DNA of 64,000 nucleotides, taken from positions 425,856 through 489,855 of the forward strand of contig NMRA01000246.1 of assembly GCA_002633005.1 (NCBI GenBank), written 5' to 3'. Origin of the DNA: Phoronis australis (lineage: Eukaryota > Animalia > Phoronida). Positions 38,385 to 49,000 of the stretch are shown here, piece by piece; the first letter of the stretch is position 1, and the number at the start of each line of letters is the position of its first letter. The notes beneath the pieces were generated by a model, which did not search any database, was not told the DNA's origin, and was given only the letters and a program-made list of their open reading frames with translations. The position numbers and the translations under genes were made by a program.

Positions 38385-38765
38385 CTTTCTGGAAGCGGTT
38401 ACTTACTGCTTACGTGTGTCGCACAGGGACTAACAAGTTCGGCAAGATTCGAGAAGTTAGGTGATAGATAGTCTCGATTTCAGGCACTTCATAGCCGTCT
38501 GGGGGAAATATGTGAGTCTAGGGTTGTGAACGCCTAAATGCATTTAAAGTTCTGGGATTTGTATCCAGCCTGTATTAGTATTCTAATCACGGACAAGAGC
38601 TATATGCTGCCGTGAAGTCTGGAATCCCTTGGCAGGAAATATCACGAGCAGTACAAAGTTCGGCAAAACTCGCATGGATGGATACTATTTGGAATAATTC
38701 GGGTATTTCCGTAACCCGCATCTCCGACAATATTCGCTAATTTCCGGCTTCCAACTTCCTCTTCG
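38385..38765. promoter_or_regulatory. Bidirectional TXNDC5/RPLP1 promoter region with a TCT/5'TOP pyrimidine initiator
   Basis: The two ATGs diverge 491 bp apart. CTTCCTCTTC at 38755-38764, preceded by ETS-like TTCCGG, matches ribosomal-protein TCT starts. Confidence 0.7.
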
Positions 38766-38783: not shown

Positions 38784-38830
38784 AGTACACTGTTCTCATC
38801 TGAGCTAAGGCCAATCCGGCGACGTGTACT
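38784..38830 (+). other. Structured RNA element (three-way junction) in the RPLP1 5'UTR
   Basis: AGUACAC/GUGUACU stem, bulged U, GUU/GAC stem, CUC-AUCU-GAG hairpin, CUAAG linker, GCC-AAUCC-GGC hairpin. Confidence 0.65.
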
Positions 38831-38875: not shown

Positions 38876-41800
38876 ATGGCTTCTACTGATGAACTGGCTT
38901 GCACTTATGCCGCGCTCATTTTGGCTGACGACGATATTGCCATTACCGTAAGTTAACATGTTCTCTCATTTTCTGTTGCTGTGTTGGTGATGTAAAGATA
39001 GTTGATACTGTACACTGCTGACTTGGGGTAGGGTGACCTTCGTGTGCATCTAACCAAACCATAGTTCTCGCTGGGAACTACCAATTTATTTTGAGTGAAA
39101 TAATCACAGAAAGCCCTGTTACTAACCTTGGCCTAGTCTTATTGGGCCTTTCACTATTCAGTTAAGGCTAAATGTCCCTTGCATTCCACAGGCGTCCTTA
39201 ACTTCCGATCATCCTCAATACACACTATACGATACCACAGGCATCCTCAGCTTCTGATCGTCCCCAACACACTATATAATACTACAACAAGGTATGACAC
39301 GCTGCCTCTGAACTTGAAATTCCACTTCATCCGTCCATAGCAAACACAAAACTCAGTAAATTTACACAAAACAGACGTTCAACAAACCATGAGGAATTTT
39401 TCTTACTCCCAATACCATTTACGGTGTCGTGCTTCACTGAGTTCGCAAGAAATTCGCGGTCAAAGCACAAAAATCTTCCCAAAAAGCCTGTCCGGAGCAA
39501 CTGCTTGGTGCCGCGAAGGTCAAGGATAATACGGAATTATCCGATGAGTTACGGATGAATGGCAGTTGCTGATCTGTCACGGAAAATTATGAAATCGAGA
39601 CAAATCAGCTACTGCCGTTCATCCGTAACTCATGGTCTCCAGACTTATTTTTTCGCGGAAATGCGGATTTCCGCTTTTTTTCAAATGTGCTTTCCGCTTT
39701 TTTATAATATTTCCGCGTAAAAAGTCAGATTTGATGTAAAATTTCTGCGGCAAATTCCTTTCTTACCGCGGCGTTGCAGACGACGTTCACCTTGAAAAGC
39801 GGAAGTTGGTCTTTATGTTTCGGAGGAACGTAAATTGTCAACATTGCCAGGGCATCTGGGACAGCGTGGTGGGATTTTCAATGGCGTCTCGTGTTGTTAA
39901 GCGCGGCGACAAATACTACCGCTCTGCAGCCAAAAATGTGTGGGTTGGGAGTGGACGGGCGAGCTGAAAGGATGCAGACGCATGCTACTGATGGTGGTAA
40001 CGATTTTTGTCGGGGAAAGGTTCACATTGACCATTTCAAGGCTGGTTATCGGGCAGGATTTGGGCCGTAAAAGTTTCAAAGTTTCCGCGTTTTTTGTCAT
40101 TGGTCATTCCAAGGCCTGGTTAATTATATCTCCATGGGCATATATGCATGTTTCATTTGATTTTATTTACTGTAACTTTTTGTGGGGATGTACTATCACC
40201 CCTGGAGACCGCAGGCATACAGATGTAATTGCCTAAGGGCTGTTCCAGTAAAATCCGTGTGGGAGGGAGGGGGGGACGGCAGTAGAAATAAAAATTCATG
40301 GGTGGTGGTCTTCAGAAAAAATCTCAAATTATGGGTGGTCGTTCCTGTAAGAAGTGATGCATTAAAAATGGGTGGTATTTTTTGACCTGTTAATGTCGAC
40401 AGGTTGGTTACTTCAGCCGAACACATCTCCAAAGAAATCAAAACTCAATAAAATGCAATTGGCTAATATCCTAACTTATCCCAATACAAAAAAGCCCATA
40501 TTGCCAGTGAACAGAGTGCAATATGTTCACCAAGCCATTAATCAAGTCATGGGCAACTTGGTTTGAGCCAATTGTTTGTCTGCAGTCCTATTGAATTGAA
40601 AAGTTATGCAACACTAAACTGGTGTTAACACATATAAGAAAACTTATGATTTTTAAATAAAAAGTCTGAGGAGTAAGATGAACAAGTTCCAATATTCACT
40701 TGACATAGAAGTATAAAAGAGTTCGTGGAGACAGTTTGAGATTCATAGATCCTTATAATTGAAAAAATGTTCATTGAAATTATAGACACATGGTGAACAG
40801 AGACACCTGGTGGCTGCCAAAAGTTTTGCTCACAGGCTACTTTAGTTTTTGACAATATTGGAAAAGACAACTAGTTCTTGTCTGTCAATCATCTAAGTTC
40901 TTAATAGGTCCTCCTGGAGGCAATTTTTTGCAAGTGTTGGATTTTATATTTTAACCTATTAAAAATAATTAAAAAATTATGGGTCATGGGTTGGAGAAAT
41001 AAATGAAAAATATGGGCGGTGGGTACGAAATAAAAGTGCCTTCCCCCCCTCCCATACAGATTTTGCTGGAACAGCCCTAAGTCCGATTTGGCGAGTACCA
41101 GCTCGCATTTTACGAGCTGAAATTGCCATTGGCGACCTAAGATCGAGGCTTACTCGCCAAACGTGACGTCATTTAGAACACTTGCAAAACTGATCAACTA
41201 ACCAACACTCAGTAACAGAACAGCAACAAAGAACAATTGCTCACGGTTTGTTCCAAAAGAACTCATTTGCAATAAATATACCAACCACCAAGTGGTCTTC
41301 TTAAGTTGTGATTAGGCAAAGTATTTCAACATACTTTGCCAACTTGAACAAAAGTGCTGCTTTCACTCCTACTGAATACAAAATGATTTATTGCTTGAAC
41401 AGTCCTGATAAAATTGTTTTTGTTTTGTAGGCAGACAAACTATCCAAAATCTTGGGCGCTGCTGGCGTATCTGTTGAACCCTTCTGGCCAGGTAAGTATT
41501 ACTAGTGCTTTTCACTTGATGGAGTAGTATTTGACTTTGCTGTGATTTCCTTATCTGTCAATCACATTTTCAACTTGAAATGGTCAGTTTCTATTAAGGA
41601 AATAGTGGATTCAACACATTGTATGCCACCATGAATTTGAATGAAGTATGCCTTGAACTAACATCCAAGTACTTTTAATTTTAGCTTTATCAGCATTATT
41701 GTGTTGCGAAGCTGGTGTACACAGGCCTCTCCAAATAGACTGTGTTGTTAAATTGACCTATCTCAAGCTCTGCCCCCTTGCGAAAAGTTGACAACCAAAC

Positions 41801-44153
41801 AACAAGGTATCAGAACACAAGTATGAGCTAAATGTTACATGTGATATTAAACTTTCAGGTCTGTTTGCCAAGGCTCTCTCTAACCTCAAGGTAAAGGATC
41901 TGCTCACCAGTGTTGGTTCGGGTGTTGGTGCTGCCCCTGCAGCTGGAGGTGCCCCAGGTGGTGATGCCCCTGCTGCAGCTAAAGGTTTGTACCTTCATGG
42001 GTGTCTTGCCATTGGTAACTGTGGTTTGCAGTGGGGAGTCTTTCTCCACAGCTGTCCATTCCTCACCCAAAAACAAAAACGGGTCGAAAAATCGGGACCA
42101 AATTTTCATTTAGACCACTTTATGTTTGAAAATCAGTTTCTTTTTTCCTTGCTCAAAGTTTGAAAAGAACGAGCAGATGGCACCCATTACGTCGTCGTAG
42201 TAGGTTGGATTGTTTTACCAAGGCCACATGGCCATCAAGGTAATTCAACTCAATGTTGTGAGTAATTTCAACTCGAGCAAAGGATAAAAACAATGACCTT
42301 GCTTTGCTAGAAAAAGTAGTCCTTTGAAGAAAGTAGTTTTTTTACGCCAGTGCATGCTTTATGTATTAAAATGTTGATTTTATTTTGGTAGAGTTGTGTA
42401 TTTTCAGAAAGTAGGACGTGTGTAGAATCTGATGTTTTACCAAACTGCCATTATTAGGTCACGTGATCATGTCTTATTAAGTTAGCAAAAGAAAAAAGTA
42501 ACAAGTATTGAAAAACAATAGTATCAATGATGTGACCAAATTTCATTTGATATAAGTGTTCATAAAGTTCAAAAACCTTATTACACTTTTCTGAATTTTA
42601 TTATTCTACTTAATTTTTTTTTTTTGAAATTCATCAGTGTCTTTGCTCCTCATGCTAAATTGGGACACTTTAAAACGTCTTAAAGAGGCCTGGAACGGAA
42701 TAAAGAGACAAAATTGCAATATTGAAAGTGGTTCTCTGCCACTGAAACAGAATTCATCCTGCTCACCAGGTATTTTAAGGATGGATCGGCCAATTTTTGA
42801 GGTATGGTGTTCCAAAATTAGCCAATGTTGGACACTTCTGGGGTCCCGCGTTACCTTGATCAAGGTTTCTGATTTACTAAACACTAATAGGTGTTTGAAC
42901 TTGTTCCAAACTTATGAGAGTTAATGCAGAAAAACATTTACTTTTTCTAGAAAAGTTTTACAAAAAAAAATCTCATGTGCCATACTGTGTGTGAAATAGC
43001 TGAGGATTGCATGCAGTCAGTGATTAAGTTAAAATGCATTAATGTCTCTCGGGTATATGTTGGACACTGTAATGCATTTGCCTCGTGGGGTTATCGGCAC
43101 TGCTTTTCTCTGCTTACAGAGGAAAAGGAGGAGGCTAAGAAGGAAGAGTCAGAAGAGTCTGATGATGACATGGGATTCGGTAAGTTTTATTTCTCTTCGT
43201 GCTATTGGATCTATTGTTGCAAACAATAGGGCAAAGTATTGTTAGCGTGTACAGTAAAACTCGTGTAATAAGTGCATCTTGAGTGGAAAACTATGGCATG
43301 GCACTGGGTTCTGAATTTAGTAAAGATTCGACTTGTAACACTTGTATTGACAGACTTTAAGGTGGAATCCAACTTGTCTCAAGGACCAAGTGCCCAAACT
43401 AAAACCACTGTTATGTTGTACTTAGTGTGAGTAAAAGGGAAATCTGACTTATCCATCTCCAACTTGAGTTCCATTGTACTTTTATGCAAGTTGGTGGAAA
43501 TGCTGTCTATATTTAGCTTGACATTTAGTCTATGATTTTTCATAGCAAGAATTTCTGATAGTAAGCATTATGGCATATATTCGGAGAGCATCGTTTGAAA
43601 TACAAGGTGACCCAGGGCCATTGTTTTTGCCCACAGGCCAGTAACTTTGAGATATAGGCCCCTATGTGGATGTGGTCTCATTCAATTAGTTCAAAAAAAG
43701 GTCTATTGACTAATTTTGTTTGCCTCTCACTCTTGAATGCAAAGTAAATAATGTTCATTGAGTGTGAATGGAAAAGATTGAGAAAAACATGGTTTGGATG
43801 TTAAAAGCTTGGCCAGCAACTTGCAGTTAGGCCAGTAACTTTTCAGATTAACTGGCATGACGGGCCAGCTTATTTATTTGCTGAAGTTCGAACACTGTCG
43901 GAAAATGGCATGATTTTACCTTTCTTGTGGAAATCCCACATGTTACATAAAACTTAATTGTGGCTCTGAGTGTAGGCCTATTGTGGTGCCCCCTGTTGGT
44001 TGGTGAAATACATGTACCCCTTCTATCCCCAGAGGTGTTGTTTTGAGAGATATTGAGAAACATGTTAACAGTCCTCATAGAAATGATTAAGGCTGCATAT
44101 AACCTTTTCTTGGATTAATTTTTTTTCTTTTAATTTCAGGTCTGTTTGACTAA
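38876..44153 (+). CDS. RPLP1: 60S acidic ribosomal protein P1, 5 exons, 110 aa
   Basis: Exons 38876-38947, 41431-41491, 41859-41984, 43120-43179, 44140-44153 (333 nt) give [51 protein letters not shown]...EESEESDDDMGFGLFD*. Confidence 0.97.
39186..39285. repeat. Diverged tandem duplication of ~49 bp
   Basis: CCACAGGCGTCCTTAACTTCCGATCATCCTCAATACACACTATACGATA followed by CCACAGGCATCCTCAGCTTCTGATCGTCCCCAACACACTATATAATA. Confidence 0.75.
39544..39633. repeat. Inverted repeat with 35 bp arms and a 20 nt loop
   Basis: ATGAGTTACGGATGAATGGCAGTTGCTGATCTGTC versus GACAAATCAGCTACTGCCGTTCATCCGTAACTCAT, 3 differences. Confidence 0.9.
39645..40085 (+). repeat. Dispersed repeat, copy 1 (second copy at ~50000-50385)
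   Basis: Shared colinear blocks TTTTTCGCGGAA..GCGGATTTC.GCTTTTTT, GAAAAGCGGAA, TCAATGGCGTCT and CTGC(A/G)GCCAAAAA. Confidence 0.65.
40113..40233 (+). repeat. Dispersed repeat with an inverted copy at ~57756-57898
   Basis: GTTAATTATATCTCCATGGGCATATATGCATGTTTCATTTGATTTTATTT..GTAACTTTTTGT..GATGTAATTGCC matches the reverse complement of 57756-57898. Confidence 0.75.
40237..41077. mobile_element. PIF/Harbinger-like MITE (841 bp) in RPLP1 intron 1
   Basis: TAA|GGGCTGTTCCAGTAAAATCCGTGTGGGAGGG ... CCCTCCCATACAGATTTTGCTGGAACAGCCC|TAA: ~30 bp TIRs, GGG termini and a TAA target-site duplication. Confidence 0.8.
43252..43476. mobile_element. pogo/Tigger-like MITE in RPLP1 intron 4
   Basis: TA|CAGTAAAACTC ... 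GAGTTCCATTG|TA, imperfect TIRs with a TA duplication. Confidence 0.5.
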
Positions 44154-44220
44154 GGTGCAGGACATTCTGAAGTCTTGGATATCATGAAATTGCCGTGGGA
44201 CATCTGTACAGTTAAGAGCT

Positions 44221-44226
44221 AATAAA
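44221..44226 (+). terminator. RPLP1 polyadenylation signal
   Basis: AATAAA 67 nt after the RPLP1 stop codon. Confidence 0.75.
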
Positions 44227-46071
44227 GATCTTGCTCGTATACAAATCTTTACATTGTTACTTCTCTCACATGACTTTTGACACAGATAGGCCTGTTAAAA
44301 TATATACATATACATCATAATCTCCTGGAAACAAGGCCACCCCCACTATAAATGTGCCTGCTAGAGCATGGCGCCTAGTTGTCAGTAATCCCCTTTGGTT
44401 TGCTACTTGTGGGCATTTATACTTGTAGGGTACCATAAATATGAATGTCAAGCACAAGCTTTCCAGTCTCGCTGTGTCCCAACATCACAAATACCCAGAA
44501 TACCTTGCTGCGAACCTCGCCAACATGACCAACAGCACACTTGGGCGGTTAATATAAGCAACGTGCTCTGTCCAAAAAGGAAAATTTTGATCTGTATGAT
44601 TTCAGGGTTGCAAAGGACAAACAGTTCGGTACTCGTTGAGAACTCACTCGTAGGATAACGTGATATTCCGTGACGAGCCAGCTGGTAGATCTCAAGCAAA
44701 AATGAACAGTCATTTTTCTTAGCCTAGGGACCATCTCCAACTGAGCAAGGAAATTTTTGAAACGAAATTCATAACGGTGTCTGAGATGGAAGTTGTTTTT
44801 GTGATGGAAGACCGATTTATATTTTTATACATTTAACTGGAATTAAGAATTGGACAATTTATACAAGATAAAGATATTTCCTTCCATCCACGGATTCATG
44901 TTTTGTAAAGCACGCGTCTCTTTCAATGATCCTTTTTTTCATCTGAAGTATCTTGGTATGAAACAATTAACTTCAAGTACAACTAACGAACGAAGCAGGT
45001 TGCAAAATTTGATCAACTGTTGATAAATGCGAGATATTCAACCATTGTGAACCAGTACGCTTACTATGAGTGTTATCCGTACTGCTCTACACCAGAGTAA
45101 AGAACACCTGTATTCACTAGCGTGAAAGAGTTCATAACATACAGCCACAAACTCCCGAAACATCTGGCAAGACTGGGGATTCACTCTGATACTTTTCTCG
45201 TGAGTTTTAAATCGGGTGTTTTGTGGAATGGACCAGACCTATGTGGCCTGCGCACATCCGATGCTATTAAGGTATCGAACCGCCTGCAATGTTTTATTCT
45301 GGCAAAACCTATTTTTAAAAAGCGTCTTACACGTAATTTATCCTGGGAGCATTTTTATCCAGTTGACCCAATTTTCTTGACCCAGGTTAAATCTAAAGAT
45401 GGTCGGTTGTTCGTAGCCAAAGCTACAAGTGCAACCCGGCCTTAAAAGTGTTCGGCTGTCAATATTTTTTTTTAAATTCTCAACCGATGGGCTTTGTGCA
45501 TAAAATAATTGCCAAGCTTATAGGAATCTTGAATGTTTGGTCAATTAGCCGGCCGGGGAATTCAAGTCGGTACCTGGCAACTAATGCGTGCATGAAGTAT
45601 TCCCGCAATTTTATGATTGGCGAACGTCGACAAACTCTGTACAGGTATAGGTTTCTCGAGTCGTTAATAGTTACGATTTTTTGTTGGTAACAGAAATGAA
45701 GTCCTAACATGGTTAGGAAATTTTGAATTCTAAGAGACAAAGGCCTCATTCCATTTTGGCTTCAGTGAAGGCGAAATGGATCGGCTTTGTTGGTAGGATT
45801 TAAAAACTTAGTGGAGTGTGTATTTCAAGCAATGTCGTTTTAAACAGTTGATATATGCTCAGAGCCACTTATCTCCGAAAAGCACGTTAATTCCAGTGGA
45901 GGTCAGTTGCAATCCAATTTCTGCAACCTCACGTCACCGAGCTATCCAAAGTTTTACAGGAACAACCGTTGTTTTCCTTACCGATCTTAGCTCCTCATTA
46001 CTTCAAGCACCAACGTCTTTCAATGCCACAGCGGCGAAAAGTCAAGACAGTGTCTTCACTTATAGACCAAG

Positions 46072-49000
46072 AAGTTTAATTCCCACCTTGCGCGCGCTCT
46101 GATCTGATGTCCTCTCATAATGTAATCTCTACAGTCTTCCAAATCCCTCATTTTTTGTTCTAAAATAGTATCGAATAAGCCAGATGTAGATTCGTCTGCT
46201 AATTTTACAAGATAAGATATTTGATTTTCAAGAAACTTTACTTTTTTCCGTGTTTCAGATTGTTTCTTTTTAGAATACAATATAGTTTGGGATCTGATCC
46301 TCAATAACCTTCAAAATATTTTGCCAATTTGGAAAAAAGAAATTATGTTAATAAAAATGTTACTAAATTAGTTATAGACACTCACAACAATACTGCAATC
46401 ACCGAGCAAAGTGCACTTCTACATAACATTCGCGATTTTTATAAATCTCTCTATGCATGTAAAGATAATCTCCTTGATGACGTTAATTTGAACGCTCTGT
46501 TCCCGCCGTCACTACATGTTCCGCGATTAACCAATGACGATAGTAAGCGTTTAGACGGCGAGATCACAGTGTCCGAAGCACTCAATGTGATCAAATTGAT
46601 GAAAAACGATAAGTCCCCTGGCCCTGGTGGTTTTAGTGTGGAATTCTTTAATTTTTTTGGAATGATTTACCTGTATTTTTTGGTTAATTCATTTAATAAC
46701 AGTTTTGCTCGTGGTTCCATGCCCCCAAGTCAAATTCAGAGCGTGATCACTATTATTCCAAAAGGTAAAAAGCCGCGTGAATTCTTGAGCAATTGGCGCC
46801 CCATTTCTCTCTTAAATACAAGTTATAAAGTTTTATCGGGTTGTATTGCACATCGTATTGAAAGCGTCATTACCAAAATCATTCATGAAAATCAGAAAGG
46901 CTTTATCAAGGGGAGGTTTATTGGTGAAAATATTAGAACCGTCTAATTGCTCAGAAGAATATGACATACCCGGTCTGATAGTTCAAATTGACTTTGAGAA
47001 AGCCTTCGATTCCATTTCGTGGAAAATGATCTACAAAACCCTACCTTTTTTCAACTTTGGTAAAAACCTCATTGATTGGGTGCGCTTACTAAATTCAAAC
47101 GCTACACTTTGTGTGATCCAGCACGGCATAACTTCAGAATACTTCAAAATTGGTCGCGGATGTAAACAAAGTGATCCTGTGTCCCCCTATCTTTTTATCA
47201 TTAATTTTGTGTTGAAATAATGGCCATCATGTTTCGTGAAAATAAAAATATAAAAGGTATTGACATCCCAGATGCAATATGCAGATGACACGGCTTTGTT
47301 TTTAGATGGTACAACAGAATCCTTAAAATACTCGCTTGATCTCCTGGACCAATTTCACAAATTAGCTGGTCTGAGACCAAATGTAGAAAAAACTCATTGT
47401 ATTTGGATAGGTCGGATGAAGGGAAGTGAATTGCGCTTGTGTCCAGAATTAAATTTATCTTGGCAAAAACAAAAATTCTCAATTCTGGGAGTCACATTTA
47501 GCACAAATTTATCAGAAATTCCAGACTTAATTTACAATGTCAAAATACAAGAGATTTACAGAGATTTGACTTATTGGTCCAGGAGATCGCTCACTTCGCT
47601 AGGAAAAATAACCGTAGTTAAATCGTTTGTTTTGCCTAAATTAACGCACCTCTTGTTGTCATTACCTTCTCCATCAGACAAAGTTGTTGACTCTTTAGAA
47701 AAACATGTTTTTAAATTTATTTGGCAAAACAAAAATGACAGGATAGGTAGAAATATTATTATCCAAGGTTTTTCCAACGGAGGCTGTAAAATGGTCCATT
47801 TAAAAAGTTATATTAAGTCGTTAAAATTTACATGGTTCGTGAGACTTGTGATGGCCAATCAATCTTCCTGGAAATTGATTGTTATGAAAAACCGTTTTTT
47901 AGCTGGAAAAAACCTTCTTCATGTTGGGGCCAAATTTTATAGTCAATGCCCGGGAATTTTTAAGAATGTCTTTTGGAAAGAAGTATTTTTAGTTGTTGGG
48001 GAAGTACTCTCTAGTATCTCAGATTATCACATTAAAGAGGAATTTTATTACGAACCACTCTGGTATAATTAACATATTTTGATTGATAAAAAGTCTGTTT
48101 TCTACAATGACTGGTATAAAAGAGGGATAATTTTTATCCACGATTTGTTGAACCATAATGGTTATTTTATGTCTTACCAATGTTTTTGTGAAAGATACAG
48201 GTTTTCTCCATCATTTACATCTTTTTGGGGTATTCGAAGTGCAATTTGTCAAACTATTTGACATTGATTTCTCAAATTAGGCCATGTAGTGAAATTGAGA
48301 TAACCTTGCCTTTTTGCACAACATTTAATTCTATTCTTATATCGAGACAAAAAGTCAATAAACAAAATTATACCCACTTGATACAAAAACTATATAAAAA
48401 ACCCAAATTTGAGGAAAATTGGGAAAAACAGTTGAATACCGTAATTCCCCGTGAGTGGTGGAGAAAAGCTTATTCTTATTCTATCAACTTTTCTTGTGAT
48501 GTCCAGCTTAAATGGTTTTAAATACGTTTAACTCACAGACTACTCGGAACCAATAAGTTTTTGAGTAAGATTGGTGTTAGAAATTCAGATAGTTGTACTT
48601 TTTGTAATTCTCATTCTGAAGACCTTTTTCACTTGTATTGGTCTTGTTTACGTGTCCAAAGTTTTTGGAAAACTGTTGAAAACTGGATAAAAAACCTCTG
48701 CTGAATTGATATGAAACTTGATCATTTTGACGTAATTTTTGGCTCCTTTAATGGACCAAAAATCATAAATCTACTTTTATGTTTAGGCGAGTACCACATA
48801 CACAAGCGAAGACTTCAGAATGTAGAACCATGTTTTGCACTTTTTAAACATTTTGTTTTTGATTACTACAAAGTAGAAAAGGTTATGTACTATAACCAGT
48901 GCAGGTATCTCGACTTCGAGGAACGCTGGGCCCCTCTAGCACCTTTATTTTAATTTATACTACATACAACCAATGGCCCCCTGTGTATAAATGTGAGCGT

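Follow-up and report, generated by a model that had tools for sequence, protein, structure and literature searches.

A covarying three-way junction in the RPLP1 leader of animals and its likeness to the stalk-docking site of ribosomal RNA

In bacteria, the stalk complex L10(L12)4 is reported to control its own synthesis by feedback through a messenger leader that mimics ribosomal RNA (rRNA) (PMC4538822, PMC3616713). In the ribosome itself, the linker of the corresponding junction is described as a lone-pair mini-hairpin with A-minor docking, closed by U1082-A1086 in E. coli and C1186-G1190 in Haloarcula (PMC2952862). For animals, Davies et al. 2015 (PMC4613772) reported conserved elements in the 5' untranslated regions (UTRs) of RPLP1 (33/38 animals) and RPLP2 (23/38), which that paper ranks as the oldest conserved non-coding elements (CNEs) known in animals. 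Here we compare these systems with a 47-nucleotide (nt) element at positions 38784-38830 of a 64,000-nt stretch of Phoronis australis DNA (the window), which lies within the transcribed 5' UTR in exon 1 of an expressed RPLP1 gene on the forward strand. Sequence comparison shows that the element has a real three-way junction fold, covarying and animal-wide, that resembles the stalk-site junction of rRNA.

A single scan of metagenomes, queried with an alignment of P1 proteins, recovered 217 relatives, and the best 80 of the 217 were used. The window and 27 of these loci, chosen by protein with one or two per lineage and with long-insert and duplicate loci excluded, were placed in a sequence-only alignment (n=28). 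RNAalifold on this alignment yielded the junction that a first-pass annotation had drawn in the window, with the same letters, coordinates and pairing (Table 1), and both-side changes were found at 9 of the 13 pairs. When the lone pair within the linker was included, 94.6% of 386 cells were paired; none of 500 shuffles equalled this, and slid controls reached at most 42%. We also applied our own R-scape-like, tree-aware covariation test (27 rows after L030 was dropped, 1552 column pairs, two trees), in which the top four column pairs were the three P3 pairs and the lone pair (E of 0.003, 0.033, 0.073 and 0.35 with the protein tree; 0.000, 0.027, 0.050 and 0.26 with the element tree). P1b and P2 were unscored because they are too invariant, and the event counts are rough, as few branches of the P1 protein tree are well resolved (5/46 starred).

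UAA was invariant in all 34 lineage-level RPLP1 copies, while the pair closing it was C-G in 30 (CUAAG), U-A in 4 (UUAAA) and broken in none; C.A at this position occurred in three degenerate copies, all from one lineage. The three P1b pairs were intact in 34/34, with G-C replaced once by C-G and once by A-U, and the first P3 pair was G-C in 25, U-A in 8 and C-G in one. The first-pass annotation had expected conservation with covariation, which these results bear out, but it had also described an invariant GCUAAGGC..CGGCGAC core, and this has to be given up, as P3 and the linker vary in compensating ways. With three helices, a single 5-nt linker and no other junction nucleotides, the predicted fold has the plan of a family C three-way junction with a lone-pair triloop. 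Support for it is comparative rather than thermodynamic: the window copy folded alone favours another register (GUUC/GAGC with a shifted P2; p 0.57, z -1.96), and the proposed fold lies 1.7 kcal/mol above the minimum free energy (MFE), with core pairs at p ~0.1.

A hidden Markov model built from the 27 homologues, window excluded, found the element at E 3.9e-9 (next match, E 0.14), and a junction descriptor matched the window only at 38805, against a mean of 1.35 matches per shuffled 64 kb (~0.001 per leader). A looser descriptor was set aside; it also matched non-animal loci and misplaced several registers.

The host gene is RPLP1, as had been assigned. Its model has five exons with GT-AG ends and yields a 110-amino-acid P1; exon 1 matches a P1 in the Protein Data Bank (PDB; E 8e-5), the product matches Pfam PF00428 (exon 3), and all four introns were confirmed by raw RNA reads carrying the same species label. 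The closest named P1 among the 120 matches listed was from Phoronis (79% identity). RNA read 5' ends clustered at 38755, 38772 and 38775 in three of three raw-read runs (X6, X7, X8), all of them upstream of 38784. Position in exon 1, spliced reads and these upstream 5' ends together indicate that the element is transcribed. It begins ~29 nt from the likely start, which resembles that of a 5' terminal oligopyrimidine (TOP) tract, and it ends 45 nt upstream of the AUG, with no upstream AUG. The sole element change in close relatives was T38799A in the P2 loop; small-share runs X1-X5 served only as the source of these relatives' letters. Elsewhere in the window, multi-copy repeats lie in the RPLP1 introns (39180-41120, 41700-41800, 42650-42800), with divergent reads on both strands there, and frameshifted open reading frames at 46308-48521 (+) look by eye like a reverse transcriptase of a long interspersed nuclear element (LINE).

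Table 1. Features of the RPLP1 leader element and its host gene in the window.
Feature	Position	Strand	Basis
Likely transcription start and presumed TOP tract (C, then pyrimidines)	38755..38764	+	Sequence; farthest-upstream read 5'-end pile at 38755 (X6, X7, X8)
P1a 5' strand, partner 38824-38830	38784..38790	+	Ensemble p>0.9; both-side changes among homologues
Bulged U; most fetched homologues have a 2x2 UU/UU loop instead	38791..38791	+	Homologue comparison
P1b 5' strand GUU, partner GAC 38821-38823; distal H42 position	38792..38794	+	Three pairs intact in 34/34
P2 hairpin CUC-AUCU-GAG; H43 base position; homologue loop 3-30 nt	38795..38804	+	Homologue comparison
CUAAG linker, predicted lone-pair triloop with C-G closing UAA (rRNA 1082-1086)	38805..38809	+	34-copy comparison; rRNA motif
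P3 hairpin GCC-AAUCC-GGC; H44 base position	38810..38820	+	Covarying pairs, tree-aware E 0.003-0.07
P1b and P1a 3' strands	38821..38830	+	Sequence, fold
RPLP1 coding exon 1	38876..38947	+	Gene model, PDB match, reads
RPLP1 exon 2	41431..41491	+	Gene model, reads
RPLP1 exon 3	41859..41984	+	Gene model, PF00428, reads
RPLP1 exon 4	43120..43179	+	Gene model, reads
RPLP1 exon 5: stop 44153, 3' UTR, poly(A) after ~44239	44140..44239	+	Gene model, reads

A covariance model of the element matched the window and 55 of the 80 loci at E<=1, in every case on the sense strand and upstream of P1. Twenty-seven of the 55 were training rows, and the held-out lineages that matched included L003, L032, L045, L046, L066, L070 and L074. 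Among the 25 unmatched loci, three (L028, L036, L039) gave weak matches in the correct place, 14 looked non-animal (L058 groups with a fungus, 12 are ciliate-like by eye and L033 is unplaced), and eight were animal-like without the element, two of them with short upstream DNA and one with stops. The remaining five of these eight are L006, L010, L021, L035 and L055. L006 (1-916) resembles a nematode P1 locus and has a long upstream stretch, yet no element; C. elegans and Loa are listed as carriers by Davies et al. (PMC4613772).

Several further features of these loci can be noted. Stems grow by 20-30 nt with no change at the junction in L003, L028, L036 and L045 (P3) and in L032 (P2 and P3), and L028 and L036 carry C.A at the junction pair. 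Intronless P1 copies with unrelated flanks, all of one lineage (L030, L031, L038, L041, L048, L049, L052, L053, L056, L067), are likely processed pseudogenes; such copies include ones in which the lone pair or a stem is broken without compensation. In L009, L012, L013, L025 and L029 a common 25-nt sequence stands directly 5' of the element, and L026 has at 915 an intron-like acceptor where L025, with the same element, has the common sequence. This likely reflects trans-splicing of a spliced leader, by which the distance from element to AUG stays at 10-18 nt.

Our element is the RPLP1 CNE of Davies et al.: the three motifs of that element are the 5' strand, linker and 3' strand of the predicted fold, and all three lie within 150 nt of the AUG of an animal RPLP1, as in the definition used there. 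Its conservation was therefore already known, and the first-pass annotation was right to call it undescribed only with regard to the fold and the rRNA likeness. The structure index reported by Davies et al. was not significant (p 0.466 for RPLP1, 0.062 for RPLP2; PMC4613772), and the words rRNA, mimic, feedback, 28S and junction have 0 occurrences in the main text of that paper. Read by eye, its supplement 3 has 134 of 136 core cells paired across 17 species, with UAA in 15/17, and its human motif windows match the human RPLP1 fold that the first-pass annotation had described. Neither the fold nor its likeness to rRNA turned up in the literature, with subscription journals and figures outside the coverage, and two further papers (PMC8157167, PMC11965781) hold no mention of leaders in their available text. 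What appears to be new here is thus the fold, and the rRNA likeness, of a published sequence element.

As the reference for this likeness we used two unrelated eukaryotic 28S fragments and the Rfam LSU_eukarya consensus of the large subunit (LSU; RF02543). The consensus reads C1057..G1081, C<UAA>G and G1087..C1102, and most RPLP1 junctions carry the same nine letters, in agreement with the initial equation of the linker with 28S 1082-1086. Like the H42/H43/H44 junction (RF02543, PMC2952862), the element is a perfect three-way junction with a 5-nt linker and a C-G/U-A swap, so that both rRNA closing-pair forms (C-G, archaeal and eukaryotic; U-A, E. coli) are used. The tertiary fold of the element would very probably be that of rRNA. 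In contrast to rRNA, H43 and H44 are represented by 3-bp stubs with free loops and A1088 is absent; a uL11 site is therefore not expected. Kt-42 is also lacking, and the first two H42 pairs differ. These departures are no less constant than the similarities.

A related plan may exist on RPLP2. The RPLP2 motifs in supplement 4 of Davies et al. (PMC4613772) correspond to a GUC/GAC hairpin followed by UUAAA, and a scan with this pattern gave six matches in genome records, two of them short RPLP2 cDNA contigs (L094, L096). The other four, together with seven viral matches, are not RPLP2 and were discarded. L094 and L096 represent animal RPLP2 cDNA contamination inside two bacterial genome records. 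The MFE folds at L094:477-520 (-) and L096:272-312 (-) comprise an outer stem, a 2x2 UU/UU loop, a 3-bp stem with U.G at the junction, a hairpin, UUAAA, and 3-4 nt replacing P3. Each carries G-C at 1055-1104, is without H44 and has its AUG lying across the junction. Apart from the missing H44, which the E. coli rplJ leader also lacks, the layout is that of the common RPLP1 form. RPLP2 leaders may thus share the RPLP1 junction plan, a reading that draws on two sequences with z of -0.2 to -1.1 whose 3' strand is also coding. In most animals an intron follows UUAAA (PMC4613772), so the RPLP2 fold would form only after splicing.

We suggest, with a probability of roughly 50%, that the element is a copy of the stalk-site junction without the kink-turn, bound by uL10 or the P-complex, that limits P1/P2 synthesis. 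Spare uL10(P1-P2)2 stalk complex would bind the RPLP1 leader junction, and with the complex in place, scanning would take longer to reach the AUG and less P1 would be made. As its counterpart does in rRNA, the lone-pair triloop would dock two adenines into the minor groove of P1b. Complex that is not absorbed by new 60S subunits could bind both leaders and so repress P1 and P2 together. We favour this ligand because the fold is found on the mRNAs of both uL10 partners, the rRNA junction letters are kept and the closing-pair swap is tolerated; the human P-complex is reported to function on E. coli 50S cores, and thereby to tolerate the same swap (PMC9122527). The leader would be bound less tightly than 28S, since a UU/UU loop or bulge takes the place of the rRNA helix that runs to the kink-turn. 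The broader proposal, that the RPLP1 and RPLP2 elements form one family of kink-turn-less 28S stalk-docking copies through which free uL10(P1-P2)2 represses both messengers, as an animal-wide re-invention of L10-leader feedback that sets stalk stoichiometry, is put forward more tentatively and falls a little short of even odds.

A number of observations weigh against this reading. In the Kt-42 register, a kink-turn was seen in 0/34 RPLP1 copies (at most 1/34 at any shift) and 0/2 RPLP2, whereas the same register test detected it in 28S, 23S and the E. coli leader. Kink-turns are reported in all bacterial L10 leaders, and kink-turn and adenines are both described as critical for L10(L12)4 binding (PMC4538822, PMC3616713); archaeal L10 also contacts the kink-turn (PMC2952862). 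Pair 1055-1104 is U-A in 34/34 RPLP1 copies, and 1056.1103 is paired in the RPLP1 elements; the three reference RNAs (28S, 23S, E. coli rplJ leader) have G-C at the former and a mismatch at the latter. With filters off, our covariance model gave no match to 28S, 23S, the rplJ leader or RPLP2, and covariation at the lone pair amounts to 2-3 events (E 0.26-0.35). Rplp1 heterozygous mice are haploinsufficient (PMC4069005), and P1/P2 levels are usually ascribed to mutual protein stabilisation (PMC11834158). P0, P1 and P2 knockdown with ribosome profiling has been published (Luan 2022, PMC9262593), with a supplement that contains no per-gene table.

The same evidence bears on the label "L10-leader-like" given by the first-pass annotation, which fails on the kink-turn. 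Our element shares with the rplJL leader its place in a stalk-protein mRNA and, in 34/34 copies, a UAA left unpaired at the junction, with its two adenosines, downstream of a hairpin that occupies the H43 position; the RPLP2 form likewise lacks H44. It differs in having neither a kink-turn (no K-turn stem is present) nor the bulged C, and in RPLP1 by an H44-like stem that is retained and by U-A in place of the G-C at 1055-1104, which both RPLP2 sequences have. It also stands on P1/P2 rather than uL10 mRNAs and in a cap-dependent host. Rfam returned nothing at gathering thresholds and only chance-level hits at E<=10, with no leader or rRNA family among them; this is a weak test, as the E. coli rplJ leader itself matched no L10 family. 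By membership, then, the element is not an L10 leader, although by analogy it plausibly works like one.

The main rival to binding by uL10 or the P-complex keeps the fold and changes the ligand. The junction would be a generic lone-pair-triloop platform for another protein (eIF4G or a different initiation factor, Mrt4, or some other RNA-binding protein) that co-regulates P1/P2, possibly as an activator or in developmental control. A UUAAA triloop junction is also reported to organise domain V of the internal ribosome entry site (IRES) of hepatitis A virus (HAV) (PMC6689051), so likeness to rRNA does not by itself name the ligand, a further point against uL10. There and in J-K of encephalomyocarditis virus (EMCV), a 5-nt UUAAA linker is the sole junction strand, with A-minor docking, and this A-rich junction pre-organises eIF4G binding, but as part of a large IRES tied to eIF4G (PMC6689051). 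The absent kink-turn fits another ligand, as do the U.R junction pair, U-A second P2 pair and UU/UU loop, which P1 and P2 have in common and which differ from 28S, and the Drosophila RPLP2 5' UTR is cited by another paper as giving embryonic translational control. We nonetheless consider a different ligand unlikely, if by no means negligible, given that the sole two mRNAs known with the fold encode partners of uL10, the binder of its rRNA version, and that the junction letters are those of 28S.

Less probable by a clear step is a ligand-free attenuator or stability element that slows scanning or hides the P2 AUG and thereby fixes P1/P2 output. Its position between cap and AUG, and the RPLP2 AUG within the fold, would suit such a role, but stability is weak (RPLP1 z -1.96; RPLP2 z -0.2 to -1.1), and a plain barrier would need neither an invariant unpaired UAA nor a fixed junction geometry. 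The "switch" of the first-pass annotation, read as two states alternating between the junction and the GUUC/GAGC hairpin, we regard as improbable. That register is the MFE of the window and outweighs the junction in 10/28 homologues, but its four pairs show zero both-side changes and eight broken cells, its probability is near 0 in many homologues, and by eye it is broken in 5/17 species of Davies supplement 3 (PMC4613772). A DNA-level downstream promoter element with an incidental fold, which the position 29-75 nt downstream of the likely start might suggest, is very improbable and largely refuted by the compensatory changes in the stems; retention beside the AUG in loci that begin with a common, likely trans-spliced leader (L025 vs L026) also speaks against it.

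The fold and a testable mechanism are thereby offered for elements that have been conserved for ~700 million years and had no explanation as of 2015. They bear on how the supply of P1/P2 in animals is matched to uL10 and 60S subunits, and the stalk feeds into GCN2 signalling, neural development and virus translation. If binding by uL10(P1-P2)2 is true, translation control by a 5' UTR mimic of rRNA would constitute a bacterial-style circuit in animals, including human. Should uL10 not be the ligand, a structured element common to the two partner mRNAs and absent from Rfam would still represent a new cis-regulatory RNA family.
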